In this document: positions 1,555 through 20,984 of the stretch, one piece after another
How positions within the stretch are numbered: the stretch's first letter is position 1
How the letters are laid out: the number at the start of each line of letters is the position of its first letter
Source: Acidimicrobiia bacterium
Lineage (GTDB): Bacteria > Actinomycetota > Acidimicrobiia > Spongiisociales > UBA5794
NCBI GenBank assembly: GCA_030066875.1
Contig: JASJAS010000005.1
Span: forward strand, 6,080 to 70,079
Direction: 5' to 3'
Length of the DNA: 64,000 bases
Made by a program: the position numbers and the translations under genes
Notes under the pieces: model-generated
Told to the model about the DNA's origin: nothing
The model's input: the letters and a program-made list of their open reading frames with translations, nothing else
Databases searched by the model: none

Positions 1555-1619
1555 GTGATCCGGCTAGAATGGCTGTGTCCTGTAGCGCGGTCGGAGGGCC
1601 GTATCGGAAGGAGACAGCA

Positions 1620-3003: not shown

Positions 3004-4761
3004 ATGGCAGATACCAGCAAGGTAGTTGCCCAGTTCCTGGGTGACGAGAGTTTTCCGATCGAGTGGGAGAACGAGAAGGAAAAGGATCTGTTCTGGGTCT
3101 ACGACGACCTGCATTGCCCGCGGCCGGTGTCGCCGATGTACGACGACATCGCCAACTGGGTGAACACGTGCGATCACATGTTCCGCAGGTTCGGCACGCC
3201 GTTTGCCTCAGACTGGGTCAAGAAGATTGTCAACGGGTACCTGTACACCGCAGCGATCCCGTGTGATCCCGACATGGCCGTTCCGGCCACCGAATTCGCC
3301 AACGTCTACTACCCGCGGGTCCCCAAGGATGATCCCGAGTATGCGGCCAAGATTGGCGCCTACCTGGGTGCAGTGCTTCCGACATACGGTTCGAACTTCC
3401 CGGACTGGTGGCACAACCGTCTCGTCCCAGAGATGGACGCCAACCTGAAGTACCTCGAGTCGAAGATCGACATGTGGGAAGACATCCCGCTCATGGAGTG
3501 GGCAACGATTCTCGAAGATGCCATCGACATCGTGGACAGGCACTGGAAGATCCACTGGATGCTCAACTTCTCGCAGCTGTCGGCAACCTTGGCCTTGCGC
3601 GGAGCGCTCGGGGCCGCGTTGGGTGGCGAGGACAAGATCACCCAGAAGCATGAGGAGATTCTGGGCAGGCTGCAGAACTCGGCCGCGGACCGGAACTGGG
3701 ACGCCATCGAGGTGCTGGTCGGGCTCAAGGATGAGGTCAAGGGCGATCCCGTCCTCTCCGAGGCTTTCACTAACGAAGCCGGTGCAGATATTCTCGCGGC
3801 TCTCGAGGCCACCGATCGGGGCAAGGTATTCCTCGCCGGCGGTTTCAAGGCCTACCAGCGCGAGTTTGGCTGGCACGCGGTGTGGAGCCATGAGTTCATC
3901 TACCCCTCACGCTTTGAGACACCGGAGCCGGTGCTCGACGTGATCAAGGGCTATCTGGACTCCGATTACGACCACAGGCCAGTCGTAGCGCACCTGAAGG
4001 AAGACATCCAGGCAGCGTCGCTAGAGCTGCTTGAGGGTATTCCGGAGGGGCCAGAGCTCGATGCTTTGAAGGCCGCCAACGAGATCAACCTGAAGATGGC
4101 TCCGCTCACCCCGGATCACCACTTCTACATCGATCAGGGCACGCACCAGCACACCCGGGTCGTGTTGATCTGCATTGGCCGTCACCTGGTCAAGATGGGT
4201 CTGCTCAACGAGCCGGACGATGTCATCTACATGAAGTACAACGAGCTGCGCTATCTGATGGGCGATCCCAGCCTCATCGATGCCAAGGCCGTTGTTGCCG
4301 AGCGCCGGCGTATCCGCGCCGAGCAAGAGAAGATCCGGCCGCCGGACTTCATCGGTACTGCGACCGAAGATCAGCTCGCCTTCCCGTATCTGAATCTGTG
4401 GGGCTTCCCGGAGAAGCTGCACCACGATACGGAGACCAAGGGTCGGATTGAAGGTCTCGGCGTTTCGCCTGGTGTCATCGAGGCGACCGCCAAGGTCGTG
4501 GCCTCGCCGGCAGAGTTCGACGAGGTCAAGCAGGGCGACATCCTGGTTTGTCAGATGACGAACCCGGCGTGGACTCCCTTGTTCGCCATCATCGGCGGCA
4601 TCGTTTGTGACGCCGGCGGCATGGTGGCGCATCCGGCCGTCATGGCTCGCGAGTTCGGCATCCCCGGCGTCACCGGGACTGCGATTGCCACCCGCGAGAT
4701 CAAGACCGGCGACCGGCTCCGTGTTGACGGATCCAACGGTGTTGTGGAGATCCTCGGATAG
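3004..4761 (+). CDS. PEP-utilizing-enzyme family protein: non-canonical N-terminal region plus C-terminal swivel phosphohistidine domain, with no ATP-grasp and no PEP/pyruvate TIM barrel
   Basis: The C-terminus reads GVSPGVIEATAKVV..GDILVCQMTNPAWTPLF..GGMVAHPAVMAREFGIPGVTG, the mobile-domain signature with the His at codon 543. AGGAAGGAG RBS precedes the ATG at 3004. Confidence 0.8.
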   Translation: MADTSKVVAQFLGDESFPIEWENEKEKDLFWVYDDLHCPRPVSPMYDDIANWVNTCDHMFRRFGTPFASDWVKKIVNGYLYTAAIPCDPDMAVPATEFANVYYPRVPKDDPEYAAKIGAYLGAVLPTYGSNFPDWWHNRLVPEMDANLKYLESKIDMWEDIPLMEWATILEDAIDIVDRHWKIHWMLNFSQLSATLALRGALGAALGGEDKITQKHEEILGRLQNSAADRNWDAIEVLVGLKDEVKGDPVLSEAFTNEAGADILAALEATDRGKVFLAGGFKAYQREFGWHAVWSHEFIYPSRFETPEPVLDVIKGYLDSDYDHRPVVAHLKEDIQAASLELLEGIPEGPELDALKAANEINLKMAPLTPDHHFYIDQGTHQHTRVVLICIGRHLVKMGLLNEPDDVIYMKYNELRYLMGDPSLIDAKAVVAERRRIRAEQEKIRPPDFIGTATEDQLAFPYLNLWGFPEKLHHDTETKGRIEGLGVSPGVIEATAKVVASPAEFDEVKQGDILVCQMTNPAWTPLFAIIGGIVCDAGGMVAHPAVMAREFGIPGVTGTAIATREIKTGDRLRVDGSNGVVEILG

Positions 4762-4767
4762 AAACAA

Positions 4768-4820
4768 CCCGCGATGAGTGAGTGCGCCCGGGCAAGACCC
4801 GGGCGCACGCTCATTGCGGG
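4768..4820 (+). terminator. Long imperfect hairpin (core GTGCGCCCGGG-caaga-CCCGGGCGCAC) after the swivel-His gene
   Basis: Inverted repeat read directly, starting 7 nt after the stop at 4761. Confidence 0.6.
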
Positions 4821-4847
4821 GGAGATCGACGACCGGGCCGCTTTTAC

Positions 4848-4876
4848 TCGACTTTCCCCCAGGTACGTGATATTCT
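4848..4876 (+). promoter_or_regulatory. Promoter candidate TCGACT-17-TATTCT
   Basis: Hexamers read directly. The -10 ends 1 nt before operator site S3. Confidence 0.35.
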
Positions 4877-4892
4877 CGATAATCGATTATCG
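4877..4892. promoter_or_regulatory. Operator-like site S3, perfect 16-bp palindrome CGATAATCGATTATCG
   Basis: Perfect dyad symmetry. It is intergenic, 42 bp upstream of the ATG at 4934. Confidence 0.7.
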
Positions 4893-4933
4893 GGGAATCT
4901 GGGTTTTGGCGAGGGATGAGAAGGAGCGACGAC

Positions 4934-6448
4934 ATGGCTGAACGCCTCAAGTATCTGGTTGGTGGCGAGTGGAGAGACACCACGAGCGGCGAGTATTACC
5001 CAATCACCAACAGCAGCACCGGCGAGGTCATGGCCGAGGCGCCCCGCTGTACCGCTGAAGAGGTCGATGCGGCCGTTGAAGCTGCCGCCGCTGCTTTCCC
5101 CGCTTGGAGAGATACGCCGATAACCAGGCGAGTCCAGGTCATGTTCAAGATGAAGATGCTGCTCGAGGACAATCTTCACGATCTCGCCAAGCTGTTGGCC
5201 ACCGAGATGGGCAAGACCTATGCCGAGGCCAGAGGCGATGTCCTCAAAGCCATTGAGGTTGTTGAGCTAGCGTGTGCGGTTCCCGTGACCATGCAGGGTG
5301 ATTCACTCATGAACGTCGCCGAGGGCTACGACACGGTCACGTTCCGCGAGCCGCTCGGTGTGTTTGCCGGAATTGTGCCGTGGAACTTCCCGGCGATGAT
5401 CCCGATGGGGTGGATGACCCCGCTGGCGATTACCACCGGAAACACGTTCGTACTGAAGGCGGCGTCGTTCGTACCGCAGACGGCGATGGCCATCGCCAAG
5501 CTGTTCGAGGAGGCCGGATTGCCCCCCGGAGTCTTCAACCTCGTCACCTGCTCGCGGCACGAGGCAGAGCGGCTGCTGGTTCATCCCAAGGTGCAAGGCG
5601 TGAGCTTTGTCGGCTCCACAGCGGTTGGGATGCACATCTACTCGACTGCGGCTGCCAACGGCAAGCGTGTCCAGGCTCTCACGGAGGCCAAGAATCACGC
5701 GTTGGTGATGCGTGATGCGCCGATCCGGGCTACAGCCCAGCGCATCATCAACTCTGCGTTTGGTTGCGCCGGCGAACGCTGCATGGCGCTGCCGGCGATT
5801 GCTGTTGAGGAAGAGATCGCCGACGAATTGGTGGCGACCATCGCCGAGCTCGCCCAGGAGCGCAGAGTGGGTCCGGCCTACGAGGAAGACACCGAGATGG
5901 GACCTCTGGTCAATGAGGGACACAAGGAGTTCGTCCTCAACTGGATCGACAAGTCTGTTGATGAGGGCGCAAAACTCGTCCTCGACGGGCGCGACCTCAA
6001 GGTCGAAGGCTTCGAAAACGGGTTCTTCGTTGGCCCGACCGTCTTCGACTTCGTCACCCCAGAGATGACTTGCGGCAATGAGGAGGTATTTGGGCCCGTC
6101 CTCTATGTGAAGCGGGTCAAGTCCTTCGATGAGGGTCTCGAGCTGATCAACTCGAGCGAGTTCGCCAATGGGGCGACGATCTTCACCCAGAGCGGACACT
6201 ATGCCCGCGAGTTTGCCCGCCGCATCGATGCGGGAATGGTTGGCGTCAACGTCGGCATTCCCGTTCCGATCTCGGTGTTCCCGTTCAGCGGACACAAGAA
6301 CAGCTTCTTCGGCGATCTCCACGTCATGGGCCGCGACGGCGTCCTGTTCTATACAGAGACCAAGGCAGTCACCAGCTTCTGGTTCGACGAGGAAGCAATG
6401 AAGGGCGACAAAGTCGGCACCTGGGAGGGAACCATCACTCGAACTTGA
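4934..6448 (+). CDS. mmsA: Aldehyde dehydrogenase, CoA-acylating methylmalonate-semialdehyde dehydrogenase-like
   Basis: ALDH motifs VPWNFP and FGCAGERCMALP (catalytic Cys in the MMSDH-type ERCMA context). AAGGAG RBS at 4921-4926. Confidence 0.75.
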   Translation: MAERLKYLVGGEWRDTTSGEYYPITNSSTGEVMAEAPRCTAEEVDAAVEAAAAAFPAWRDTPITRRVQVMFKMKMLLEDNLHDLAKLLATEMGKTYAEARGDVLKAIEVVELACAVPVTMQGDSLMNVAEGYDTVTFREPLGVFAGIVPWNFPAMIPMGWMTPLAITTGNTFVLKAASFVPQTAMAIAKLFEEAGLPPGVFNLVTCSRHEAERLLVHPKVQGVSFVGSTAVGMHIYSTAAANGKRVQALTEAKNHALVMRDAPIRATAQRIINSAFGCAGERCMALPAIAVEEEIADELVATIAELAQERRVGPAYEEDTEMGPLVNEGHKEFVLNWIDKSVDEGAKLVLDGRDLKVEGFENGFFVGPTVFDFVTPEMTCGNEEVFGPVLYVKRVKSFDEGLELINSSEFANGATIFTQSGHYAREFARRIDAGMVGVNVGIPVPISVFPFSGHKNSFFGDLHVMGRDGVLFYTETKAVTSFWFDEEAMKGDKVGTWEGTITRT

Positions 6449-6500
6449 TCCCCCCAACAGACCGGTCCGACCCGTCGCCCCGACGGGAAACCGGTCGATA

Positions 6501-6564
6501 GTCACGGACCCCTCCCCGTGACTGTGATCCCGGGCCACACACCGTCGTCGCGTGGCCCGGGATC
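6501..6564. terminator. Two adjacent hairpins between convergent genes (GTCACGG..CCGTGAC and GATCCCGGGCCAC..GTGGCCCGGGATC)
   Basis: A 7-bp and a 13-bp perfect stem, read directly. They lie between the mmsA-like stop (6448) and the E1-beta stop (6593). Confidence 0.6.
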
Positions 6565-6592
6565 CCTGCGTCTGGGCTCGATGTCGGAGCAG

Positions 6593-7567
6593 CTATCCGG
6601 ACATGGCTGAGATCGCGTCGACCACACGTTCTACCGACGGGATGGCCAGGTCTTCTAGCTCGCCGGCCGCCGGGAGGGGGATGTGTGGAGTGGTGACGCG
6701 GACAATGGGGCCGTCCAGATCCCAGAAGGCCTCCTCGGCGACGAGTGACGAGATCTCGGCACCCCAGCCCACCAGACGTGGGTTCTCCTCGACCGTGGCA
6801 AGCCGGGTGGTCTTGGCAACCGAATTCAAGATCGTCTGCGTGTCCAGAGGGACGAGCGAGCGTAGGTCAATGACCTCCGCCGAGATACCCAACCCGCCGA
6901 GAATCTTGGCGGCGTCGAGAGCGGTGTGAACCATGGCCGCCAGAGCGACGATCGTCACGTCATCGCCCTCACGCAGGACCCGTGCCGTGCCGAGGGTGTC
7001 GACGATTTCGCCGTCCGGGACTTCACCCTTGGTAGCAAACAGTGCTTTGTGCTCAAAGACAATCACCGGATCGGGGTCGCGGATCGCAGCAGCCATCAGG
7101 CCGATGACGTCGGCCGGAGTGGCCGGCGCCACTACCTTGAGGCCGGGAACTGCCATCGCCCAATTCTCGAGACTCTGGGCGTGCTGACCGCCAAAGCGAG
7201 ATCCGCCACCATTGGCCGTGCGAATCACCAGCGGCAGCTCGACTTGTCCGCCCGTCATGTACCGGGTCTTGGCGATCTGGTTGGCGACTATGTCCCAACA
7301 TGTCGCCAAGAAGTCGCTGAACATCAACTCCCCAACCGGAATCAGGCCGTTCATAGCGGCCCCCATGATCATTCCGGTGATGGCCTCCTCCGAGATAGGA
7401 GTGTCACGTACTCGCGTGGGTCCAAACTGCTCGTAGAGCCCAACCGTGGTCTTGAAGACGCCGCCGGCCTTGGCGACATCTTCGCCAATGAGGACAACAC
7501 GCTCATCGCGCTCCATCTCCTGGGCGAGCCCGCGGGCCACAGCGTCGCGATAACTCAGTTCCGCCAT
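6593..7567 (-). CDS. TPP-dependent 2-oxoacid/acetoin dehydrogenase E1 component, beta subunit
   Basis: MAELSYRDAVARGLAQEMERDERVVLIGEDV is a typical E1-beta N-terminus. The start at 7567 overlaps the alpha-subunit stop. The ORF-track start at 7759 is an upstream extension. Confidence 0.85.
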   Translation of the reverse strand: MAELSYRDAVARGLAQEMERDERVVLIGEDVAKAGGVFKTTVGLYEQFGPTRVRDTPISEEAITGMIMGAAMNGLIPVGELMFSDFLATCWDIVANQIAKTRYMTGGQVELPLVIRTANGGGSRFGGQHAQSLENWAMAVPGLKVVAPATPADVIGLMAAAIRDPDPVIVFEHKALFATKGEVPDGEIVDTLGTARVLREGDDVTIVALAAMVHTALDAAKILGGLGISAEVIDLRSLVPLDTQTILNSVAKTTRLATVEENPRLVGWGAEISSLVAEEAFWDLDGPIVRVTTPHIPLPAAGELEDLAIPSVERVVDAISAMSG

Positions 7568-8538
7568 GACGAGCCTCCATCGGCCCAGACGTCGGTCAGG
7601 AGTACGGCCGGATCGGGTGGGGGAGCGTTCTTCGAGGCCTCGGTAGCCGCGTCCACCTCGGCGGCTGCCTTGGCTTCGATCTCGTCGAGCTTCGCCGGCT
7701 CGACCCCCAACGACAACAGGCGTTCCCGGTAGATGTCGATGGGATCGCGCTTCAGCCACTCCTCGACTTCCTCGTCGGGCCGGTACTTCCCCGGATCAGC
7801 CCTCGAGTGTCCTTTGTGCCGATAGGTGAGCGCTTCTATCAGAGAGGGGCCCTCACCGGCGCGGGCCCGCTGGTAGGCGGCTACCGCGACTTCGTAGACG
7901 GCATCGGCGTCATTTCCGTCGACGACGATCCCTTCGAGACCGTATGCGGAGGCCCGATCGGCGGCGGGATGCTCGACCGCGATCACGTCGCTGATCGCCG
8001 TGTATTCCATGTAGAGGTTGTTCTCACAGACGAACACCACCGGGAGATCCCAGACGGCGGCCATATTGAGCGACTCGTGAAACGCCCCGATGTTGGTGGT
8101 CCCATCTCCGAAGAAACACACGGAAACCTGATCCGTACCTCGCAACTGCGCCGCCCACGCCGCTCCTGCCGCCACCGGTAAGTGGGCTCCGACTATGGCG
8201 TACGAGCCCATCGCGCCCTTACTCACGTCGGTGAGATGCATCGAGCCGCCTTTGGCCTCGCAGATGCCGTTCGAACGTCCCATCAGTTCACCCATCAGGG
8301 CGTTCATGGGTGCGCCCCGCAAGAGTGTGTGGTTGTGACCGCGGTAGGTGCAATACGACATGTCGTCGGGCTGCATGGCGACCGCGAACCCAGCAGCCAC
8401 GGCTTCCTGGCCGAGGCCCAGGTGCGTGGTGCCCTTGACGAGTCCTTGCATGAACAGGTCGTAGGCGCGCTTCTCGAAGTAACGGGCGCGCACCATGCCG
8501 TCATACATTGCCAGCCTGATGTCTAGTGCTATCTCCAT
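7555..8538 (-). CDS. TPP-dependent 2-oxoacid/acetoin dehydrogenase E1 component, alpha subunit
   Basis: TPP-binding motif GDGTTNIGAFHESLNMAAVWDLPVVFVCENN. Confidence 0.85.
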   Translation of the reverse strand: MEIALDIRLAMYDGMVRARYFEKRAYDLFMQGLVKGTTHLGLGQEAVAAGFAVAMQPDDMSYCTYRGHNHTLLRGAPMNALMGELMGRSNGICEAKGGSMHLTDVSKGAMGSYAIVGAHLPVAAGAAWAAQLRGTDQVSVCFFGDGTTNIGAFHESLNMAAVWDLPVVFVCENNLYMEYTAISDVIAVEHPAADRASAYGLEGIVVDGNDADAVYEVAVAAYQRARAGEGPSLIEALTYRHKGHSRADPGKYRPDEEVEEWLKRDPIDIYRERLLSLGVEPAKLDEIEAKAAAEVDAATEASKNAPPPDPAVLLTDVWADGGSSWRN

Positions 8539-8641
8539 AGGGCCTCCACGTTACTTAGGACAGAGACATGGTAAAACTTGGGCTGACTGTTGCCGCATAG
8601 TCCACACCGGCCGAGGCGGGCGGTTTTGCCGCCTCTTTGGG

Positions 8642-8670
8642 TTGCGAATACATGCTAGAGCCCGTATCCT
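8642..8670 (+). promoter_or_regulatory. Promoter candidate TTGCGA-17-TATCCT
   Basis: Hexamers read directly. The -10 ends 1 nt before operator site S4. Confidence 0.35.
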
Positions 8671-8671
8671 T

Positions 8672-8687
8672 CAGTAATCGATTATCG
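8672..8687. promoter_or_regulatory. Operator-like site S4 (CAGTAATCGATTATCG) in a divergent intergenic region
   Basis: Contains TAATCGATTATCG. It lies between the E1-alpha start (8538, minus) and the UPF0261 start (8887, plus). Confidence 0.6.
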
Positions 8688-8886
8688 AAGATAGAGGATT
8701 TGAGATCGTATTGCTACTGAGGGCGTCCTCAGAGACAACAGGAGAAGGGCCCACGGTGGAAGTCGGAGTGAAGCACTGCTTGTTCCCCACGAGTAGTCGG
8801 GTCGGAATCAACCGTATGAATGATCACTCCATGCCCCTCTGCACGCCTGCCGCCACCGCCACCAACCAGAAGGGCGAAGGCTGATC

Positions 8887-10137
8887 ATGCCCACTGTGGG
8901 CCTTCTGGGCGCTCTTGACACGAAAGGTGCAGAATACGCGTTTCTGCGCGATCGGATCGAAGGATCCGGGTGCGGCGTGATCATGATCAATGCCGGCGTC
9001 ATGGCTGATCCGGATTACCCCGTGGACTATTCACGAGAGGATGTCGCTGCGGCGGCGGGGGTCGACATAACTGCACTATTGGCTGCAGGAGACCGCGGTG
9101 CGGCCGTGACCCGCCAAGCCGAAGGAGCCACCGCGCTCGTCGTCCGCCTTTTCGAGGAGGGTCGCATCGACGGGCTGCTGGGCATGGGGGGGTCGGGTGG
9201 TACCACGCTGGTGAGTCAGGCGATGCGTGGGCTCCCGGTGGGGTTTCCCAAGCTGCTCGTTTCGACAATGGCATCGGGAGATACGTCTCCATATGTGGAT
9301 ACTTCCGACATCACGATGATGTATTCCGTCGTCGACATCGCGGGAATCAACGCCGTTTCCGCGCAGATCCTGACCAACGCGGCCGCCGCCATCACCGGCA
9401 TGGCTGTTGGCTACGAATCGGGCCGACCGGTTTCTCGAGGGCGACCCGCCGTGGGAGCCACCATGTACGGGACCACAACTCCGTGTGTGAGCACCGCAAA
9501 GCGGTGGCTCGAGGACGCCGGCTTCGAGGTGTTGGTCTTCCACGCCAACGGTCCCGGAGGTCGGGCGATGGAGGCGTTGATGCGAGACGGCCACATCGCG
9601 GCGGCTCTCGACATAACCACGACCGAACTAACAGACGAGCTAGCCGGGGGTACAACCACGGCCGGCCCCGACCGCCTCGAATTGGCCGGGTCGCTCGGGC
9701 TTCCGCAGGTGGTTTCGGTCGGCAGTGTGGAGCAGATCACGTTCTCCCCGCCGAGCGCAATCCCCGCAGAGTATGCAGACCGGCTGTCGTACGAACACAA
9801 CCAATCGGTCACCCTGATTCGGAGTGACGCCAAGGAGATGGCACGACTGGGCCGTGTGATGAGCGACAAGCTCAACGCGGCCAAGGGGCCGGTGTCTGTC
9901 TTCCTGCCACTACGAGGCACCTCAGAGTATGCGGTCGCCGGCGCTGTATTCCATGACCCTGAGGCGGACGAAGCTCTCTTCGAGTCTCTCCGGGTCAACC
10001 TCGATCCCGAGGTCGAGTTGATCGAGATGGACACCCACATCAACGATCCCGTCTTCGCGGTAGCGATGGCCGAGAAACTCGCCGAGCTGTTCGGTGATCT
10101 GGAAGGGACTGTCAACCCGAAGGGGTCGACACCATGA
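8887..10137 (+). CDS. UPF0261 family protein (Tm-1-like N-terminal nucleotide-binding module)
   Basis: The N-terminus MPTVGLLGALDTKGAEYAFLRDRI and the overall glycine-rich pattern fit UPF0261. Its stop overlaps the next gene as ATGA. Confidence 0.7.
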   Translation: MPTVGLLGALDTKGAEYAFLRDRIEGSGCGVIMINAGVMADPDYPVDYSREDVAAAAGVDITALLAAGDRGAAVTRQAEGATALVVRLFEEGRIDGLLGMGGSGGTTLVSQAMRGLPVGFPKLLVSTMASGDTSPYVDTSDITMMYSVVDIAGINAVSAQILTNAAAAITGMAVGYESGRPVSRGRPAVGATMYGTTTPCVSTAKRWLEDAGFEVLVFHANGPGGRAMEALMRDGHIAAALDITTTELTDELAGGTTTAGPDRLELAGSLGLPQVVSVGSVEQITFSPPSAIPAEYADRLSYEHNQSVTLIRSDAKEMARLGRVMSDKLNAAKGPVSVFLPLRGTSEYAVAGAVFHDPEADEALFESLRVNLDPEVELIEMDTHINDPVFAVAMAEKLAELFGDLEGTVNPKGSTP

Positions 10138-10994: not shown

Positions 10995-11067
10995 CTGACG
11001 ACCAGCAAGTCCTCAGCGGCGAGGCGATCTCCTGTGAGTGCGGTGCCGAACGAGGAGGGAGAACGTC

Positions 11068-12693: not shown

Positions 12694-12755
12694 TTCGGGC
12701 TGCCACGCCCCAGGTGCTGCTCGATGAAGTAGACAAGGTCTTCTGAGAGGTAACC

Positions 12756-13625: not shown

Positions 13626-14098
13626 ACCGAACCCTCACTATCGAAACAACCATCAACGGTCGGCGACGGTCGCTGGATGTCGCGGTCAACCACACGCTGC
13701 TCGACGTGTTGCGCGACGACATCGATCTGACCGGAACCAAGGAATGCTGCGTCGTCGGCGAGTGCGGTGCCTGCACTGTGATCATCGACGGTCGGCCGAT
13801 GAACTCATGTTTGATGCTCGCCGTTGAAATCGACGGGTCAGAGGTCACGACGGTAGAAGGCCTGGAACTGGAGGAGGGTCTCAGCCCCCTGCAGGGCGCG
13901 TTCCTCGACGAAGGTGCCACGCAGTGTGGGTTCTGTATTCCTGGTCAGCTGATGGCGGCAACCGCGTTGTTGCAGCAGAACCCAGATCCGACGGTGGAGG
14001 AGATCCAGGAAGGCCTCGCCGGCAACTTGTGTCGCTGTGCCGGATACGAACAGATCACTAAGGCTGTGCTGGCCGCGGCAAGGGGGGTGAAGCAATGA
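13622..14098 (+). CDS. Mo-hydroxylase [2Fe-2S] small subunit (CoxS-like)
   Basis: Cys clusters ECGACTV, QCGFCIPG and CRCAGY. Confidence 0.9.
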   Translation: MNRTLTIETTINGRRRSLDVAVNHTLLDVLRDDIDLTGTKECCVVGECGACTVIIDGRPMNSCLMLAVEIDGSEVTTVEGLELEEGLSPLQGAFLDEGATQCGFCIPGQLMAATALLQQNPDPTVEEIQEGLAGNLCRCAGYEQITKAVLAAARGVKQ

Positions 14099-16338
14099 AT
14101 GCTGTCGGCAGTTCACCGCGCCGGGGCGGTGGCTATGGGCGGGTCACAGGCCATCAGGAATACCTGGCAGACATCAAGCTCCCCGACGCCCTTCATGTGA
14201 AGCTGGTGACATTGGAGTGCGCTCGCGCCAGGATCAACGCGATCGATTCGACGGAGGCCGAGCAAGTGCCCGGCGTGCACTTCGTCATGACCGCCGCCGA
14301 CCTCCCCGACCCGATGCCTCGCTTTGGTCCGCAATTCCAAGATCGGCCCGTTATTGCCGTTGGGGAGACCAAGTACCACGGCGAACCGGTTGCAGCCGTG
14401 GCGGCTGAGACCAAGGATGCCGCCGAAGAGGCTGCCCTCCTGGTCAAAGTCGACTACACGAAGCTGGAGGACGGCATCTTCAGCGTCGCTGACGCGCTTG
14501 CTCCGGACGCAGTCCTGGTTCAAGACCCGGCGTTGCGCGGTGCCAGCTCGTTTGCCCAAACGAACATCATTGACGAGAAGCACTTCGGCTGGGGTGACAT
14601 AGACGACCAGGAGGCCCACCTGGTCGTCGAGGATTCGTTCCAGTTCCCGATGGTGACTCACTTCGCCATCGAGCCTCACGGATTCATGGCTGCTCCCGAC
14701 GGCGACGGAATCGAGGTTTGGAGCACGATTCAACATCCGTACCTACTTCAGAAGATCATGGCCAAGATGCTCGACCTGCCGCTGTCCAAGGTCCGGGTCC
14801 ACGCACCGGATCCGGGCGGCGGATTCGGCGGCAAACAGATCCCCAAATTCGAGCCGCTAGTGGCGTTCATGGCGTTGCGCGCCGGCCGCCCGGTGCGGCT
14901 GGTGCTCAGCCTTGACGAGACCTTTCAGCAGGTGCGCCGCTCGTCGGCCGAGATCCGGGTCAGGGCCGGATTCACCGCCGAAGGGGTCTTCACCTTCATG
15001 GACATAGAAACCAACTTCTTGGTTGGTGCCTACGTTGACATTGCCGACCGGGTCGTTTCGAAGTCGAGCTACTCCGGGGCAGGGCCTTACCGCATCCCGG
15101 CCGTCAAGATCATCGGTAGAACGATCTTGTCCCACACCACACCATCGACCGCGTTCCGCGGGTTCGGGATCCCACAGATCGGCTGGGCGCGAGAGTCGCT
15201 CATCGACGAGGCGGCGCTGCAATTGGGTATCGACCGCCTACAGATTCGGCTACTCAACCTGGCTCGTTACAAAGAGCCGTTCATCCCGAGCGAGGAGGCC
15301 GATGGCGATTGGGAGCAGACCGTACGCACAGCGGCGAAACGAATCGGTTGGGGTGATCCGCTGCCGCCGAATCGGGGTCGCGGCATCGCAGTTGGCCTCA
15401 AATCAGGTCCGACTACTGGCCTGTCCTATTCAACCGTCCGCTTGCTCTACGACGGCAGCGCCATGGTGTACGCCGGAACCTCAGACATGGGCCAAGGTGC
15501 CCGTACCATCTTCGCCCAGATTACGGCCGAAGAACTCGGCGTCCCGCTGGATGACATCACCGTCGTCATGGGGGACACCTCTGTCGTTCCTTACGATCAG
15601 CAGACCTCGGCCAGCCGATCCTCGGTGCTGATGGGAACTGCTGTGCAGCGCGCCTGTTTCGAGATCCAGGGCAAGGTCCGGGCGATGGCGGCGAAGCTCT
15701 ACAACGTCGACGAAGGCGATATCAAGGTCGACCAGGGAAGACTCCTGCTGCCAGACCGGGAGTTCAGCGTCGTCGACGTCATGCAGGAGGCTCTCGCCCC
15801 GCTCGGAGGTGAGGTGATCGGCAATGGCGAAATGCGGAAGGACAAGGAACCGGATCATCCGTTGGGAGGCACGGCCGCATTCTTCGAGTTCAACTGCACC
15901 GCGTCTGAGGTCGAGGTCGACATGGAGACCGGGCATGTCACCTTGGTGAAACACGTCACGGTGGGCGACGTCGGCAAAGCGCTCAACCCATTGCAGGTGA
16001 CCATGCAAGACGACGGTGCTGCCATCATGGGCCTGGGACACACCCTGATGGAGCACTACATATTCGACAACGAAGGGCGGGTGCGGAACATCGGGGCGAT
16101 CGACTACCGCATCCTCACCAGCATGGATCTGCCGCTCGATCTACACAGCGAGAGCGTGGAGAACGCCGACGGTCCCGGTCCCTACGGGATCAAAGGCGTG
16201 TCGGAAGGAAGTCTGCTCGTCACTGCCCCAGCAGTAGGGGCCGCAGTGCGCGAAGCGACGGGCAAAATAATCCGAGACCTACCGCTCACCCCACAGCGGG
16301 TGTGGGAAGCACTTCAGGAGGACGAGAATGGATCCTGA
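14095..16338 (+). CDS. Mo-hydroxylase molybdopterin-binding large subunit (xanthine dehydrogenase/aldehyde oxidase family)
   Basis: 747 aa, with an ATGA overlap to the small subunit. Motifs GGGFGGK and GPYGIKGVSEGSLL. Confidence 0.9.
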   Translation: MNAVGSSPRRGGGYGRVTGHQEYLADIKLPDALHVKLVTLECARARINAIDSTEAEQVPGVHFVMTAADLPDPMPRFGPQFQDRPVIAVGETKYHGEPVAAVAAETKDAAEEAALLVKVDYTKLEDGIFSVADALAPDAVLVQDPALRGASSFAQTNIIDEKHFGWGDIDDQEAHLVVEDSFQFPMVTHFAIEPHGFMAAPDGDGIEVWSTIQHPYLLQKIMAKMLDLPLSKVRVHAPDPGGGFGGKQIPKFEPLVAFMALRAGRPVRLVLSLDETFQQVRRSSAEIRVRAGFTAEGVFTFMDIETNFLVGAYVDIADRVVSKSSYSGAGPYRIPAVKIIGRTILSHTTPSTAFRGFGIPQIGWARESLIDEAALQLGIDRLQIRLLNLARYKEPFIPSEEADGDWEQTVRTAAKRIGWGDPLPPNRGRGIAVGLKSGPTTGLSYSTVRLLYDGSAMVYAGTSDMGQGARTIFAQITAEELGVPLDDITVVMGDTSVVPYDQQTSASRSSVLMGTAVQRACFEIQGKVRAMAAKLYNVDEGDIKVDQGRLLLPDREFSVVDVMQEALAPLGGEVIGNGEMRKDKEPDHPLGGTAAFFEFNCTASEVEVDMETGHVTLVKHVTVGDVGKALNPLQVTMQDDGAAIMGLGHTLMEHYIFDNEGRVRNIGAIDYRILTSMDLPLDLHSESVENADGPGPYGIKGVSEGSLLVTAPAVGAAVREATGKIIRDLPLTPQRVWEALQEDENGS

Positions 16339-17218
16339 GAAGGAAGTCGGACCGGTCAGGGATATGCCTGCGGCGAAAGTCGTTGAGGCTGCCCAGTTTG
16401 TTAAAACGGGCAAGAGCTACTCGCTTTCGGTTCCCCGGTTTCCGGGGATGCCACTCTTCCCGGGGCATCCGCCGTTCCAGGTGGTCAACTACCGGACCCC
16501 GCCCGGGATCATTGCTGGCAACGTGGAACCGTGGGGCCCGCCCAACGAGGTCAACCTCGGCTACATGGCGGAGTACCTGATGGCCTGTTCGCATTCAGGT
16601 GCGCACATCGACGGGCTAGCGCACATGACCATTGGCGAGGACAACCATTGGTACGGCGGCGGGAACACAGCGGACCACCTCACCGACCACGGGCCAAACT
16701 TTGGCGATGCCGCGAAGCTCCCGGCGTTCTTTACCCGGGGGGTCTTGCTCGATCCTCCAACGTACCGTGGAGTTGACGCACTGCCTGCTCACGAGCCGGT
16801 GAGTGCCGACGAGCTGCAGGCGGTCGCAGCGGCGCAGGGTGTCGAAGTGAAGCCTTGGGATGTTGTGCTCATCAGGACCGGCTATCTCAAATACTGGCCA
16901 GATGCCGAGAGGATGAATGAGCATCTCACCGCCGGGCCCGACCTATCGGCGGCGGAATGGCTCCTAGAAAGCGGCGTTGTTGCCACCGGCACCGACACCG
17001 AGACCTACGAAGTAATGCCAACACCGGATCGCGGTGATCCGCCCAATCCGCAGCCGGTGCACACGAAGCTGCTCATCGAGAACGGTATCTATCTACTGGA
17101 GAGCATCTACCTCGAGGACATTGCCCGTGACAAGGTGTACGAGTTCCTGTTTGTGATGTTGCCGCTGAAGATCAAGGGGGCAACCGGCTCGATGGTGGAC
17201 CCGCTCGTGGTCATCTAG
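16328..17218 (+). CDS. Cyclase-family (kynurenine formamidase/isatin hydrolase-like) metal-dependent hydrolase
   Basis: HSGAHIDGLAHM matches the HxGxHxDxxxH cyclase-family motif. It overlaps the upstream gene by 11 nt. Confidence 0.75.
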   Translation: MDPEKEVGPVRDMPAAKVVEAAQFVKTGKSYSLSVPRFPGMPLFPGHPPFQVVNYRTPPGIIAGNVEPWGPPNEVNLGYMAEYLMACSHSGAHIDGLAHMTIGEDNHWYGGGNTADHLTDHGPNFGDAAKLPAFFTRGVLLDPPTYRGVDALPAHEPVSADELQAVAAAQGVEVKPWDVVLIRTGYLKYWPDAERMNEHLTAGPDLSAAEWLLESGVVATGTDTETYEVMPTPDRGDPPNPQPVHTKLLIENGIYLLESIYLEDIARDKVYEFLFVMLPLKIKGATGSMVDPLVVI

Positions 17219-17242
17219 CCGAGGAAGCAATAGGAGCACGGA

Positions 17243-18286
17243 ATGAAAGCTCTGGTTGTCACCGAGCCGAACGAATTCGCCATCGAAGAGCTGCCGATGC
17301 CGGTCGCTGGCGAAAACGAGGTCGTCGCACGCGTGCGTGCAGTCTCGATCTGCGGCACGGACGCGCACTTGATCGCCGGACACTATCCGAATTTCTGGCC
17401 GCCGAGTTTTCCCTTCACTCCGGGTCACGAATGGGCCGGCGAGTTGGTCGAGGTGAGTTCAGGCGCCGCCGATTTGGGCTGGAAGGTTGGCGATCGGGTG
17501 TGCGGTACCTCACATGATGCCTGCGGGTTCTGCCAGAAGTGTGTGGAGGGGCGCTACAACCTGTGCGAGAACTACGGCAACATGGCGGTCCATCGCCAGT
17601 ACGGCCATAACTATCAGGGCAGTTTCGCCGAGTTCGTGCTCCACGGTGTCAAGTCGATCTTTCGTCTTCCCGACGAGATGGACTTCGCGACCGGTGCGGT
17701 GATCGATCCAGCGTCGATAGCCCTGCACACGGCAAACCGCGGAGGAGTGCGGCCCGGGGATACGGCCGTTGTATTCGGACCAGGGCCGGTCGGTTTGTTG
17801 GTGGCCGATGCGTGTCGCATCCGCGGCGCCGCCCACGTTATTGTCGTCGGCCGCGGTCAGCGGCTCGAGCTGGCTGCGTCGATGGGCAACGAGGTGATCA
17901 ACTTCGAGAAGGTGAACCCGGTGGGAGAGATACTGGAGATCACCGACGGTCACGGTGCCGATGTCATCCTGGACTGCGCCGGCGTATCTGAGACGTTCCA
18001 GTGGTCAATTCCAGCGCTACGCAAAGGCGGTCGGATTGCCGCGGTCGGGATTCCCGTGCAACGGGTCGATCTCGACTTCCAGGAGCTCGTGCTCTACGAG
18101 AAGGAACTCGTCGGGGTGCGGGCGACCGCAGGGGAGATGCGTCACGTGTTACCGCTGGTCGCCGATGGCTCGATCCGGGCCAAGGAGCTGATCACGCATC
18201 GCTTCTCTCTCGATGAGTTTGCGGAGGCCCTGGCGACCTTCAACGAGCGTCGCGGCGGTGCCATGAAGGTGATTGTCGAACCGTGA
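17243..18286 (+). CDS. Zinc-dependent medium-chain alcohol/polyol dehydrogenase
   Basis: CGTDAHL, GHEWAG and the GPGPVGLL Rossmann motif. Confidence 0.85.
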   Translation: MKALVVTEPNEFAIEELPMPVAGENEVVARVRAVSICGTDAHLIAGHYPNFWPPSFPFTPGHEWAGELVEVSSGAADLGWKVGDRVCGTSHDACGFCQKCVEGRYNLCENYGNMAVHRQYGHNYQGSFAEFVLHGVKSIFRLPDEMDFATGAVIDPASIALHTANRGGVRPGDTAVVFGPGPVGLLVADACRIRGAAHVIVVGRGQRLELAASMGNEVINFEKVNPVGEILEITDGHGADVILDCAGVSETFQWSIPALRKGGRIAAVGIPVQRVDLDFQELVLYEKELVGVRATAGEMRHVLPLVADGSIRAKELITHRFSLDEFAEALATFNERRGGAMKVIVEP

Positions 18287-18753
18287 GAATCCTGGTTCTT
18301 TGCACCGGGAACATCGGTCGTTCGCCGCTGGCAGAAGTGATGTTGCGCAAGGCGCTGGCGAGCGGTCTTGGCGTCGAGGACGCAGAGTTGGCGGATCGCG
18401 GATTTGTCGTGACCTCTGCGGGAATCGCCGCACCCGAAGGTCATCCCGCATCGCGCCGCAGCATCGCGGTAGCCGCCGGTCGGGGGCTCGACCTGAGCAA
18501 TCACAGCGCCACTCAGCTGACCGCGCTGGCTGTGGCTGCGGCCGACCGCATCTACTGCATGGACGGGGGCCAGCTGGCGGCAGTGAAGGCAATCGATCCT
18601 GCAGCGGCTTCGAAGACCGGGTTGATCGCAGGGGAGGGGATCGAAATACCCGACCCCCACTACCAGGACGACGAGTTCTTCTGGCGGGTTGCCCAACAGG
18701 TCGAAGCGGCCGCGCTGAGCCGGGCTGCAGAGCTTCTCGAACAGGTCTCGTAG
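18283..18753 (+). CDS. Low-molecular-weight protein-tyrosine-phosphatase family protein
   Basis: CX5R(S) loop LCTGNIGRS and the downstream IPDP Asp loop. Its start overlaps the ADH stop as GTGA. Confidence 0.8.
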   Translation: MRILVLCTGNIGRSPLAEVMLRKALASGLGVEDAELADRGFVVTSAGIAAPEGHPASRRSIAVAAGRGLDLSNHSATQLTALAVAAADRIYCMDGGQLAAVKAIDPAAASKTGLIAGEGIEIPDPHYQDDEFFWRVAQQVEAAALSRAAELLEQVS

Positions 18754-18778
18754 CGACACAGCAAGCTGCCATGCGTGT

Positions 18779-18807
18779 TTGACTCGGTTGTTTGGGACGG
18801 CGATAAT
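18779..18807 (+). promoter_or_regulatory. Promoter candidate TTGACT-17-GATAAT
   Basis: Near-consensus hexamers with 17-nt spacing. The -10 ends 2 nt before operator site S5. Confidence 0.5.
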
Positions 18808-18809
18808 TC

Positions 18810-18825
18810 ACATAATCGATTATCG
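18810..18825. promoter_or_regulatory. Operator-like site S5 (ACATAATCGATTATCG)
   Basis: Contains ATAATCGATTATCG. It covers the predicted transcription start, 15 bp upstream of the GTG at 18840. An extra half-site-like CGATAAT lies at 18801-18807. Confidence 0.65.
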
Positions 18826-18839
18826 AGGATGGAGACACC

Positions 18840-20984
18840 GTGACGTTTGCCTACGCGTTCGACTACTCGCATGGGTTGACCCTGCCTGAAGTTGCCTCGC
18901 TGATTGGGGGGAAGGCGGCAAACCTCGGTGTGATGTCGCGAGAGTTGGGGCTACCTGTGCCTCCCGGATTCGCAATCAGCACGACGGCTTGCAAGCTCTA
19001 TCTCGAGAACGGCTGGCCCTACGGGCTCGACAGCGAGATCAATGATCAGATGAGCCGGCTCGAGAAGACGGTGGGTCGTGGATTCGGCGATCCCAATGAT
19101 CCTCTGCTGCTCAGCATTAGGTCGGGTGCGCCGGTGTCGATGCCGGGAATGATGGACACCATCCTCAACCTCGGCCTCAACGATGAAACCGCCGCTGCAC
19201 TCGAGAAGGTCACGAGCGATCCGAGTTTTGTGACCGCTTGCCGGGCTCGTTTTGAAGAGACCTATCTGGACATCGTTGGCGCTGTAGTTCCGGACGATCC
19301 ATGGTTGCAGCTGCGCGGAGCGATCGAAGCTGTGTTCCGCTCATGGAATAGTGATCGAGCCCGCAGCTACCGCGCCCGTGAGGGAATCGCGGATGACCTC
19401 GGTACCGGCGTCATTATCCAGACGATGGTGTTCGGGAACCGCGGAGAGGACTCGGCTACCGGGGTCCTCTTCACGAGGAATCCCGCCACCGGCGAGGACG
19501 TGCTCTACGGAGATCTGATGTTCAACGCCCAGGGCGAAGACGTTGTGGCCGGTACGCATCAGACAGAGCCGATAGCAGTTCTCGACCAAAGAATGCCCAA
19601 GATCGCAGCGGAACTGAGGGCTTACGCCGCGATGCTGGAGCGCCACTACTCCGACGTGTGTGACATCGAATTCACCATCGAGCAGGGTCGTCTGTGGATG
19701 CTGCAGACCCGGATAGGCAAGCGCAGCCCGCAGGCGGCGCTACGAATTGCAGTTGAAATGGCCGAGGACGACGAGTTTCCGCTAGATAGGGCGGAGGCCG
19801 TTGCCCGGGTCGCCCACCACCTGGCCGACCCGCCGGTGGCGCCGGCCGAGCGGACGGCGGATGCAGTAGCCGCCGCAGTCGGCCTGGGCGCATCACCTGG
19901 GATCGCAGTCGGTGAGATCGCGACGACACCCGAAGCCGCGGTGATCATGGCCGAGGCCGGCAAGGATGTGCTGCTGGTCCGTCGGGAAACCTCTCCGGAT
20001 GATGTACACGGCATGGCCCGGTCGGCTGGGATCTTGACCACCACCGGCGGCCTTGCCAGTCACGCTGCGGTCGTTGCTCGCGGTTGGGGCATCCCGGCGG
20101 TTGTCGGCGCCGCTGCCGTCGAGGTCGTCGACGATGCGGTCACGATCGACGGAGACCTCTTCGAATCAGGAGAGGTACTTACTATCGACGGAGGCACCGG
20201 CGAAGTGTTTGTCGGAGCCATCACCAGCGGGGCGGAGATCGTCCCCGAAGCGAGCACCCTGTTGGCCTGGGCAGAACAGCATGGAATCGAGATTGAGGCG
20301 GAATCACGGGAACCGGGAGAAGCGATGGGCGAGACGTTTGAAGGCTCAGACATAAGTCGAGAAGACATCATCCACGTATTGCTGATCAAGGGATTCGTCG
20401 TACTCGACGACCTTGCGCACATCCTCTTCGGCGACTCGGAAGCGATCGGCCGAGAGCTGGACGAGATCGTTGCGGACGGGCTTGCTGAGTTGCTTGGCGG
20501 GAGTGCGCTCGCCGGGATGTTCCAGCTGACCGAGGACGGGAAGGCTGTCGGAGCCGAGAGGGTCGCTGCAGACCGCGAGCAATGGGGTCTGGAGAACGCC
20601 GTGCAGGCGCTCGACGATCTGCTCCCGCTCGATCTGCGGATGAAGGAGATAATGACGGGCTGGCAGCTGCGGGAAGTGGAGGGCCAGCAGGTAATCAATG
20701 ATCACAGCGACGAAGCCCACGATGCCGCCATCCTGGCGGACTTCGGAGCCCTCCATGTGGACGCCGGAGTGTGGCTGGGTTCACTTGCCGAAGGGCTGCC
20801 GCGCCTTGAGTCTTACGTCGCCCGCCTCGATCGAGCCGCCGGGCTGGTCGATGAAGGCAATACCGACTATCTGGCATCACCGCGCCTCGACAGCTATCAC
20901 AACGTGTGGTTCGAACTACACGAAGACTTGATTCTGCTGGCAGACCGCACCCGCGAGGAAGAAGTGGCCGCCGGCCGGGCCTAG
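18840..20984 (+). CDS. Truncated pyruvate,phosphate dikinase-like protein: ATP-grasp N-domain plus swivel His domain plus a roughly 245-aa unassigned C-terminal region, with no PEP/pyruvate TIM barrel
   Basis: GGKAANLG and PPGFAIST (PPDK N-terminal type). The phosphohistidine motif TTTGGLASHAAVVARGWGIPAVVG has its His at codon 408. From about 20250 the sequence lacks the PEP-utilizer C-terminal motifs. Confidence 0.8.
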   Translation: MTFAYAFDYSHGLTLPEVASLIGGKAANLGVMSRELGLPVPPGFAISTTACKLYLENGWPYGLDSEINDQMSRLEKTVGRGFGDPNDPLLLSIRSGAPVSMPGMMDTILNLGLNDETAAALEKVTSDPSFVTACRARFEETYLDIVGAVVPDDPWLQLRGAIEAVFRSWNSDRARSYRAREGIADDLGTGVIIQTMVFGNRGEDSATGVLFTRNPATGEDVLYGDLMFNAQGEDVVAGTHQTEPIAVLDQRMPKIAAELRAYAAMLERHYSDVCDIEFTIEQGRLWMLQTRIGKRSPQAALRIAVEMAEDDEFPLDRAEAVARVAHHLADPPVAPAERTADAVAAAVGLGASPGIAVGEIATTPEAAVIMAEAGKDVLLVRRETSPDDVHGMARSAGILTTTGGLASHAAVVARGWGIPAVVGAAAVEVVDDAVTIDGDLFESGEVLTIDGGTGEVFVGAITSGAEIVPEASTLLAWAEQHGIEIEAESREPGEAMGETFEGSDISREDIIHVLLIKGFVVLDDLAHILFGDSEAIGRELDEIVADGLAELLGGSALAGMFQLTEDGKAVGAERVAADREQWGLENAVQALDDLLPLDLRMKEIMTGWQLREVEGQQVINDHSDEAHDAAILADFGALHVDAGVWLGSLAEGLPRLESYVARLDRAAGLVDEGNTDYLASPRLDSYHNVWFELHEDLILLADRTREEEVAAGRA

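Follow-up and report, generated by a model that had tools for sequence, protein, structure and literature searches.

The 64-kb stretch of Acidimicrobiia DNA analysed here (hereafter, the window) carries genes for a PpsA-like protein with a swivel His domain, a GntR/FCD regulator, an HprK-like P-loop protein, a three-subunit Mo-hydroxylase of the xanthine-oxidase (XO) family (12756–16338) and a 714-aa protein resembling pyruvate, phosphate dikinase (PPDK). We incline, by a modest degree, to the view that the region is a GntR-controlled catabolic island whose core is an ATP-dependent small-molecule dikinase tied physically and regulatorily to the Mo-hydroxylase. An earlier analysis of this DNA (the original prediction) had grouped seven phosphoryl-handling genes within positions 3004–20984. 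All seven were found at or close to where it placed them and belong to the families it named; six lie inside that span, and the PHP gene lies outside it, on the minus strand. The DNA comes from a metagenome-assembled genome (MAG), and its PPDK-like and HprK-like proteins are 100% identical to MAG proteins that NCBI lists on an 87-kb contig. The gene map was built from Pfam and NCBIfam scans of the window proteins, which are the basis of each assignment unless a line names another. The core genes are as follows.

3004–4761 (open reading frame (ORF) open from TTG 2980), plus strand: PpsA/HpeH-like dikinase component (PpsA-like), from its substrate-binding domain of rifampin phosphotransferase (RPH) type and its swivel His domain
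11038–11772, plus strand: GntR/FCD transcriptional regulator
11866–12746 (as assembled to 12693), plus strand: HprK-like P-loop protein (mini-PEPCK), from its predicted fold
12756–13625, plus strand: Mo-hydroxylase FAD subunit
13622–14098, plus strand: Mo-hydroxylase 2x[2Fe-2S] (FeS) subunit
14095–16338, plus strand: Mo-hydroxylase molybdenum cofactor (Moco) subunit
18840–20984, plus strand: PPDK-like protein, 714 aa, from its PPDK_N and swivel domains

One genome per GTDB species was scanned with an alignment of the HprK-like protein, which retrieved relatives in 377 species. Neighbourhoods were mapped in the best 80 loci, which belong to Acidimicrobiia and Chloroflexota (Limnocylindria and relatives), and genes were counted over 43 loci with full flanks around a central HprK-like gene. 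All 43 had the PpsA-like gene and the Mo-hydroxylase, followed in frequency by the GntR regulator (39), the PPDK-like gene (38), MBL (29), SDR and alcohol dehydrogenase (ADH; 26 each), the cyclase (25), UPF0261 (12), the PEP-hydrolase barrel (8), the low-molecular-weight protein tyrosine phosphatase (LMW-PTP; 3, Acidimicrobiia only) and PHP (2). The expectation that the seven families would co-occur outside this genome was thus borne out for the PpsA-like, PPDK-like and HprK-like genes, together with the Mo-hydroxylase, LMW-PTP and PHP being lineage-specific. The recurrent order is PpsA-like – GntR – HprK-like – FAD – FeS – Moco – (cyclase – ADH) – PPDK-like, and nearly all loci have the HprK-like gene directly 5′ of the genes for the hydroxylase subunits. 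The PPDK-like gene occurs after the Moco gene, after the ADH gene, between the GntR and HprK-like genes, or in an Aldedh–SDR–MBL–PPDK-like operon, so that its linkage has been kept through rearrangements. No ATP-grasp gene other than the PPDK-like one was seen in any locus or in the window, where the only ATP-grasp lies at 18906–19712, within the PPDK-like gene. Both swivel His motifs and the P-loop of the HprK-like protein are invariant across about 80 loci.

The grouping extends to distant HprK-like proteins (37–45% identity), found in genomes of 35–44% GC. In two loci of 35% GC (L091 and L092), a FAD–FeS–PpsA-like–Moco operon is divergent from SCP2, HprK-like and ATP-grasp-only (317 aa) genes. 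In another (L088), the HprK-like gene adjoins the start of a PPDK_N gene, and in a third (L089) the order is HMGL – PpsA-like – HprK-like – cupin, with no hydroxylase and no ATP-grasp seen on its 5.4-kb contig. The PpsA-like gene is embedded between Mo-hydroxylase subunit genes in distant loci, and the module survives at 30–40% identity. Since these loci keep the module, the long PPDK-like protein taking the place of the short ATP-grasp subunit, the conserved unit consists of an ATP-grasp protein, the PpsA-like protein, the HprK-like protein and the Mo-hydroxylase.

Related clusters are present in two cultured organisms. On the Thermomicrobium roseum (T. roseum) megaplasmid NC_011961 (L085, 56118–69210) the genes run in the order ABC transporter, Tm-1-like, PEP hydrolase, GntR, cyclase, ATP-grasp (323 aa), a DUF4202-like hypothetical protein, FAD subunit, FAH (fumarylacetoacetate-hydrolase family), ABM, PEP-utilizing enzyme, xanthine dehydrogenase (XDH) Mo subunit and 2Fe-2S subunit. 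Its UPF0261/barrel pair shows 57% and 69% identity to the window pair, and its “PEP-utilizing enzyme” is 45.8% identical to the PpsA-like protein over 581 aa. On a Diaphorobacter plasmid, a PEP-utilizing enzyme gene is followed by a 206-aa hypothetical gene, after which comes a 506-aa “PPDK” (ATP-grasp and swivel) that is 45% identical to the PPDK-like protein over 446 aa. Comparisons by hhalign or BLASTP revealed no relation between the PPDK-like C-terminal domain and the DUF4202-like protein of T. roseum, between the two hypothetical proteins of ~205 aa, or between the HprK-like profile and a 305-aa Diaphorobacter hypothetical protein.

An AT-rich operator-like motif, ATCGATTATCGA, containing two ATCGAT half-sites, was found at seven promoter regions spanning 1.5–36 kb of the window.

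1537–1556: two overlapping copies, 5′ of the GFO/IDH/MocA gene
2711–2723: 5′ of the PpsA-like gene
4875–4894: 5′ of the methylmalonate-semialdehyde dehydrogenase (MMSDH) gene
8677–8689: E1alpha/UPF0261 divergent region
18815–18827: 24 nt 5′ of the PPDK-like gene
30320–30332: 5′ of the operon from transketolase to PHP
36096–36115: 5′ of the ABC transporter operon

Allowing at most two mismatches, ATCGATTATCGA has 20 matches in the window against 1.1 expected, the maximum in 100 shuffles being 4. Related loci from both phyla, 1.44 Mb in all, contain 80 copies of the exact core, preferentially 5′ of PpsA-like, UPF0261, E1alpha, PPDK-like and SDR genes, and the 24-nt spacing is kept before PPDK-like genes displaced from the core cluster by 8 kb (L087) or by more than 25 kb (L086). 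Judged from its sequence and placement, the motif appears to define a regulon of at least seven promoters, and the GntR/FCD protein is the probable binder of this putative shared operator. Because synteny is kept across two phyla and the operator is so strongly overrepresented, the gene grouping is far beyond chance.

The PpsA-like protein carries a swivel (PEP-utilizers) domain at residues 517–587 (Pfam), with the catalytic His in VCDAGGMVAHPAVMAREFGIP. Its remaining portion, described in the original prediction as an unassigned N-domain, can in fact be assigned in large part: residues ~230–592 match the substrate-binding and swivel half of the RPH, PigC/RedH, PRK06241 and PRK08296 models, RPH structures match the protein as well, and the Pfam domain Rph_4th is present in relatives at 40% identity that lie beside distant HprK-like genes. 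The swivel His is invariant; most relatives have it in the motif TDxGGxxxH, the window protein in CDAGGMVAH. An RPH-type domain with a swivel His (T/SxxGGxxxH) C-terminal to it is what is seen in the two-component small-molecule dikinases HpeHI, CreHI, PpsAB and AcvAB, also recognised as “split” rifampin phosphotransferases, in which HpeI is the ATP-grasp protein and HpeH comprises the substrate-binding and swivel domains, its conserved His being essential (PMC12167813). Characterised proteins of the PpsA class lack an ATP site and depend on an ATP-grasp partner (PMC12167813). The statement that the locus holds no complete known enzyme is therefore not supported, as a substrate-binding/swivel protein with a separate ATP-grasp protein is a known class of complete enzyme. 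In the relative L043, a paralogous Mo-hydroxylase large subunit gene, with its FAD and FeS genes, lies directly 5′ of the PpsA-like gene; because of this arrangement, two hydroxylases may be served by the PpsA-like gene that is displaced in the window.

The PPDK-like protein, which starts with GTG, has the N-terminal ATP-grasp (PPDK_N, E 7.1e-49) and the central swivel His domain (PEP-utilizers, E 5e-21; residues 375–454, Pfam) of a PPDK. Its swivel His lies in GGLASHAAVVARGWGIPAVVG, and GGLASHAAVVARG is invariant among relatives. PPDK structures from the PDB align with its N-terminus at E ~1e-116 only to PPDK residue ~550, the end of the His-domain linker. In the AlphaFold model, residues 466–714 (pLDDT (predicted local distance difference test) 88.7) form a linker helix, a disordered spacer, a winged helix and an all-alpha bundle; the segment has no Pfam match even at E <= 10, and a Foldseek search with the C-terminal domain returned weak MarR-type winged-helix matches, all at E >= 0.013 and none at E <= 0.001. 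The model thus agrees with the original prediction that the PEP/pyruvate TIM barrel is missing: a winged helix and a helical bundle are predicted in its place, with no cryptic barrel and no PEP-utilizers_C domain. Lacking a PEP/pyruvate TIM barrel, the protein cannot be a PPDK enzymatically. Since co-localisation was found outside this genome and the C-terminus does not appear to be a divergent TIM barrel, the proposed grouping was not refuted. The 714-aa architecture is kept in more than 120 protein clusters at 62–75% identity, with an invariant C-terminal signature NDHxD...H...DSxH..WFELHE...AAGRA (the window protein ends ...WFELHED...AAGRA). The extra swivel domain and the C-terminal domain may serve in a relay from His to His, in docking or in regulation.

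The protein passes the NCBIfam model NF004531/PRK05878 (534 positions) with 483 bits against a cut-off of 456 and is annotated “pyruvate, phosphate dikinase” on that account. The model is passed by proteins without a PEP/pyruvate domain, and for this reason hundreds of Acidimicrobiia and Chloroflexota proteins probably carry a wrong enzymatic name. As had been predicted, no single gene of the window encodes a PPDK, a PEP synthase or a phosphotransferase-system enzyme I; none was found by the family scans.

The HprK-like protein, with its P-loop in FLGGESNHGKSM, is 293 aa long once a frameshift is corrected. As assembled, its gene ends ...FVAPGPSS before a stop at 12693. The end conserved in the family, ...RPFFMIRAATPQVLLDEVDKVF, is read in another frame up to a stop at 12744–12746, and a 1-nt frameshift falls in a run of C residues at ~12676–12686, which is probably an error of the metagenome assembly. 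The protein has no significant Pfam or NCBIfam match, the sole sub-threshold one being PEPCK_ATP at E 0.055. A HMMER profile search of 1.84 billion representatives retrieved 197 clusters at 50% identity, which form a closed family, and no bridge to HprK or PEPCK, and a tblastn search of PLSDB gave no match. Members are 71–96% identical across two phyla.

The AlphaFold model (pLDDT 90.3, predicted template modelling score (pTM) 0.88) best matches ATP-dependent PEPCKs (E 8e-8 to 1e-6, TMq 0.41–0.49, TMt about 0.3), with HprK/P ranking next (E 1.7e-4). In an hhalign comparison with E. coli PEPCK, residues K85, H104, K126-S127 and E144, which are invariant or nearly so in the family, align with K213, H232, K254-T255 and D269, which we take to be the metal and phosphate site of PEPCK. 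The segment GGESNHGKSM...RRGGLLVATE resembles the HprK signature GxSGxGKS...RGHxLVADD. On the strength of the model, the protein is predicted to have a PEPCK/HprK fold, so that the HprK-like label of the original prediction is supported by predicted structure and not by sequence profiles. It is not a member of PEPCK_ATP as defined, having 293 aa against a domain of ~530–540 aa and a partial fold likeness. Two roles considered for it were rejected: a replacement for the ATP-grasp protein, since distant loci keep both genes side by side, and a PDRP-like regulator, since neither swivel His has beside it a conserved counterpart of the Thr that PDRP-type proteins phosphorylate.

The closest solved relative of the Moco subunit is the alpha subunit of 4-hydroxybenzoyl-CoA reductase (1RM6; 6.9e-88, 299 bits, full length). 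Against the 4-hydroxybenzoyl-CoA reductase equivalogs, the hydroxylase subunits scored 410, 125 and 171 bits for cut-offs of 995, 405 and 258, and assignment as either 4-hydroxybenzoyl-CoA reductase or xanthine dehydrogenase was rejected, all equivalog cut-offs being missed. The FAD subunit has 289 aa, of which two stretches match the 321-position HcrB model TIGR03195 (125 bits against 404.55), the best covering residues 2–117; an additional [4Fe-4S]-binding insertion is a feature of HcrB. The Pfam and NCBIfam scans showed no XdhC-type chaperone gene in the cluster.

The other genes of the window up to ~36 kb are listed below; beyond that point, family scans showed no gene with an apparent relation to the island.

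10–1377, plus strand: second, paralogous Mo-hydroxylase large subunit, 3′ part, cut by the window start
1569–2630, plus strand: GFO/IDH/MocA oxidoreductase, IolG-like
4916–6448, plus strand: CoA-acylating MMSDH (IolA-like), above the curated cut-off
6593–8538, minus strand: E1beta (Transket_pyr/Transketolase_C) and E1alpha (E1_dh)
8887–10137, plus strand: UPF0261 (Tm-1/MarK-like), from its UPF0261 N and C domains
10134–10994, plus strand: PEP-hydrolase-like TIM barrel, from PEP_hydrolase
16328–17218, plus strand: cyclase-family metal hydrolase
17243–18286, plus strand: Zn-dependent ADH, IolM/Tdh-like
18283–18753, plus strand: LMW-PTP family, from LMWPc
21010–21483, plus strand: cupin
21808–22749, minus strand: luciferase-like monooxygenase
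22932–23900, plus strand: 2-hydroxyacid dehydrogenase
29939 down to 24255, minus strand: operon TKn–TKc–SDR–MBL–MFS–PHP (TKn–TKc, split transketolase)
24255–25151/25256, minus strand: PHP, histidinol-phosphatase-like, last gene of that operon
30429–35989, minus strand: C_GCAxxG protein and branched-chain-type ABC transporter

Two plus-strand ORFs, 6552–6929 and 6926–7732, were rejected as spurious: they are family-less and overlap the minus-strand E1beta/E1alpha genes. The island also contains enzymes of sugar/short-acid type (MMSDH/IolA-like, IolG-like GFO and IolM/Tdh-like ADH), and in the relative L087 (4325–7752) genes of the PGK, GAPDH and isocitrate/isopropylmalate dehydrogenase families lie between a split transketolase and the PPDK-like gene. 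Such enzymes may reflect metabolism of a ring-cleavage product or a second substrate. Farther along, radical-SAM genes at 44462–45619 and 47207–48334 (minus strand) surround a family-less 329-aa ORF (46333–47322); the pair (44462–48334) adjoins an alpha/beta hydrolase gene and an APH-family phosphotransferase gene (42153–43133), forming an unrelated small cluster. A fructosamine-kinase-family gene (50148–51017, plus strand) follows GFO/IDH/MocA and SDR genes at 48257–50163, with no operator nearby; it is a further kinase gene of the window, outside the regulon and unrelated to it.

Four of the seven genes grouped in the original prediction, UPF0261, the barrel, LMW-PTP and PHP, are accessory or lineage-specific. 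The UPF0261 protein matches Tm-1 (1.9e-78) and MarK (9MPY, 1.3e-64) and has both domains and, natively, the N-terminal ATP-contacting Lys (...GALDTKG...), which corresponds to Tm-1 K20 and MarK E16K (PMC12624787). In 2025, MarK was reported to phosphorylate phenolic aromatics as an ATP-dependent kinase (PMC12624787), so that UPF0261 represents a separate, characterised kinase family. The barrel protein matches PEP_hydrolase (3.7e-123) and Mll9387 (2P10, 8.6e-101); wherever complete among the loci, its gene is directly 3′ of UPF0261, and plant Tm-1-like proteins are fusions of the two (PMC5028733). It had been put forward as a candidate PEP-binding barrel. We rejected it as the missing domain of the PPDK-like protein, as the barrel travels with UPF0261 and occurs in 8 of the 43 loci against 38 for the PPDK-like gene. 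In the literature on Tm-1-like and PEP hydrolase proteins we found no functional study of this cluster. The LMW-PTP (LMWPc 83.7 bits) has the CX5RS motif LCTGNIGRS and the DP motif IPDPHY and is a candidate lineage-specific phosphatase for a phosphorylated intermediate. The central hypothesis, a phosphotransfer system beside a Mo-hydroxylase, is thus supported in part, through its three-gene core; the PEP barrel and the unity of the seven genes found no support. The suggestion that the system is PEP-driven likewise found no support, its known relatives being ATP-driven dikinases.

By analogy, the system is most likely a variant of the two-component dikinases that phosphorylates a hydroxy-aromatic substrate, our best guess being a hydroxylated N-heteroaromatic or phenolic compound. 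The chemistry and the phosphoryl-transfer roles are ones that we infer, the first three steps by homology. The PPDK-type ATP-grasp domain of the 714-aa protein would bind ATP and pass a phosphoryl group to a swivel His, either its own or, directly or by relay, that of the PpsA-like protein. The latter would then phosphorylate the phenolic or enolic OH of a substrate bound by its RPH domain, with the stoichiometry ATP -> AMP + Pi + substrate-O-phosphate, as for HpeHI, CreHI, PpsAB and AcvAB. The Mo-hydroxylase would act on the phosphorylated, less electron-rich (hetero)aromatic. This step follows the genetics of 3-hydroxypyridine degradation (3hpd) in Ensifer adhaerens HP1, where HpdA is reported to convert 3-hydroxypyridine only with the adjacent “pyruvate-phosphate dikinase” and “PEP-utilizing protein” genes, a two-gene requirement that the authors did not explain (bioRxiv 10.1101/2020.01.08.898148). 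The analogy with split PEP-synthase-type enzymes drawn in the original prediction is apt and has in this study a direct precedent from genetics. The HprK-like protein, the most conserved and most tightly linked partner, might treat the aryl/enol phosphate in the way that PEPCK treats PEP, most plausibly dephosphorylating it, to ADP or phosphorolytically. Its removal of the phosphoryl group would account for the fact that no dedicated phosphatase is conserved, the Chloroflexota loci included. A bolder version, in which the trio and the Mo enzyme form a new ATP-coupled hydroxylase/dehydroxylase with a transient aryl/enol phosphate that renders the substrate reactive at the Mo centre and whose phosphoryl group is recovered onto ADP by the mini-PEPCK, seems to us rather unlikely; were it true, the mini-PEPCK would be an enol-phosphate:ADP phosphotransferase outside central metabolism.

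Several observations weigh against a dikinase working with the Mo-hydroxylase. In the window, 14 kb separate the PpsA-like gene from the PPDK-like gene. The ATP-grasp partner, of PPDK type, has a His domain of its own and a winged helix, which could signal a regulatory and not a catalytic role, and a relative of it (65% identity, same architecture) lies beside tig/clpP without the operator, so that family members exist outside the cluster context. The hhalign match of the HprK-like protein to PEPCK is weak when taken alone (probability 18%, E 0.0013, single comparison). The T. roseum and Diaphorobacter clusters contain no HprK-like protein, which is thus not obligatory for the pairing of dikinase and Mo-hydroxylase. 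Finally, the authors of the 3hpd study detected no phosphorylated intermediate (bioRxiv 10.1101/2020.01.08.898148).

The distance between the two genes would be expected if the region were a co-regulated catabolic island in which the phospho-handling proteins have independent jobs, such as kinases and phosphatases that each serve a different intermediate, linked by a shared pathway and regulon, with no phosphorelay feeding the Mo-hydroxylase. The island does hold genes for many unrelated proteins (MMSDH, E1alpha/beta, a split transketolase, SDR, MBL, ADH, a cupin and an ABC transporter), LMW-PTP and PHP occur sporadically, and MarK, of the UPF0261 family, is a self-sufficient kinase in N. aromaticivorans (PMC12624787). 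Independent jobs are harder to reconcile with the need of characterised PpsA-like relatives for an ATP-grasp partner when the PPDK-like gene is the only ATP-grasp in every locus, with the survival of the module and the Mo-hydroxylase at 30–40% identity, the PpsA-like gene lying among the hydroxylase genes, or with the genetic dependence of the 3hpd hydroxylase on two kinase-like genes. We judge this explanation unlikely, with a chance that is far from negligible. That the PPDK-like protein is primarily a regulator, its winged helix binding DNA (possibly the ATCGAT operator) or a partner while the ATP-grasp and swivel His sense energy or phosphorylation, is in our view decidedly unlikely. The winged helix is confidently modelled, with matches of MarR, GntR and TrmB type and a weak HVO_A0261_N match in a homolog; the gene has its own operator copy; and there is the family member outside the cluster. 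The Foldseek winged-helix matches are, however, all weak, the cluster already has its conserved GntR/FCD regulator, and in the corresponding position distant relatives use a plain 317–323-aa ATP-grasp protein without a winged helix and Diaphorobacter a 506-aa ATP-grasp and swivel protein encoded two genes 3′ of the PEP-utilizing enzyme. Moreover, the invariant His, Asp and Glu residues of the helical bundle suggest a ligand or metal site and not DNA binding alone.

HprK/P is a protein kinase, and the HprK-like gene stands directly 5′ of the hydroxylase genes in nearly all loci, in a cluster where no XdhC-type chaperone was seen. One could therefore imagine that the Mo-hydroxylase itself, and not the small-molecule substrate, is the target of the dikinase and P-loop proteins, in maturation, cofactor insertion or covalent regulation, which would also fit the missing phosphorylated intermediate in the 3hpd study. 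We regard this as very improbable: the N-domain of the PpsA-like protein is homologous to the small-molecule-binding domains of RPH, PigC and HpeH, the fold and residues of the HprK-like protein are nearer to PEPCK, a small-molecule enzyme, than to HprK/P, and on the short L089 contig the PpsA-like and HprK-like genes persist beside a cupin gene, with no hydroxylase seen. That same contig, where the two genes are adjacent and no ATP-grasp is seen, together with a linkage of PpsA-like and HprK-like genes (43 of 43) tighter than that of the PPDK-like gene (38 of 43), could suggest that the HprK-like protein is the real ATP-using partner charging the PpsA-like swivel His and that the PPDK-like protein has no part in the kinase reaction. 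We give this hardly any credence, as long distant contigs have an ATP-grasp-only gene immediately beside the HprK-like gene and the PDRP-type Thr is not conserved beside either swivel His residue.

If the ATP-dependent dikinase coupled to the Mo-hydroxylase is the correct reading, it suggests a role for thousands of “pyruvate, phosphate dikinase” proteins without the catalytic TIM barrel and places the unannotated, very highly conserved HprK-like family in a defined biochemical setting. The cluster would extend the 3hpd observation to abundant soil and freshwater Acidimicrobiia and Chloroflexota; because it reaches beyond Ensifer in this way, phosphorylation-assisted hydroxylation of hydroxy-(hetero)aromatics may be widespread.

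Several known systems can be set beside the cluster. HcrABC provides the closest solved relative of the Mo subunit and shares a pathway, anaerobic phenol metabolism, with phenylphosphate synthase; it differs in that the window subunits score far below its equivalog cut-offs and no CoA ligase is seen in the cluster. The 3hpd cluster likewise places an XO-family Mo-hydroxylase (HpdA1-4) beside a “PPDK” (orf9), a “PEP-utilizing protein” (orf10) and a GntR regulator (orf7). HpdA has in addition a separate membrane-anchored SRPBCC subunit and adjacent genes of the maleamate pathway, whereas the scanned window genes include no SRPBCC subunit, 2,5-dihydroxypyridine (2,5-DHP) dioxygenase, deformylase, amidase or isomerase, so that the window cluster is not of 3hpd type in the strict sense. 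The window UPF0261 protein shares both domains and the DTK Lys with MarK and Tm-1 and is followed by the TBST/PEP-hydrolase-like barrel gene, which is fused to it in Tm-1; MarK is a stand-alone homodimeric aromatic kinase, and the window pair belongs to a larger cluster, in which it is an optional accessory.

PPDK shares with the 714-aa protein the ATP-grasp and the swivel His, and differs from it in having a TIM barrel where a winged helix and helical bundle are predicted. PEPCK and HprK/P share with the HprK-like protein the predicted fold, the P-loop and the Lys/His/acid metal-site residues; PEPCK has ~540 aa against 293, and the MurE-like N-domain of HprK/P is absent. The closest likeness is to HpeHI, CreHI, PpsAB and AcvAB, with which the cluster shares a protein of ~65–70 kDa with an RPH-type domain and a C-terminal swivel His, a separate ATP-grasp protein and the context of a hydroxy-aromatic catabolic cluster. 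In the characterised systems the partner is an adjacent, ~40-kDa ATP-grasp protein of PEPS type without a swivel domain, a form that the distant relatives of the module have (317–323 aa, ATP-grasp only), while in the window it is PPDK-type, 714 aa long and encoded 14 kb away. The window cluster further differs in having no carboxylase and in the coupling of the module to a Mo-hydroxylase. PpsABC also has a third component, PpsC, with CBS domains; here, the third component has a predicted PEPCK/HprK fold. Two features thus go beyond the known theme: a long, PPDK-type ATP-grasp subunit and an orphan third component of PEPCK/HprK fold.

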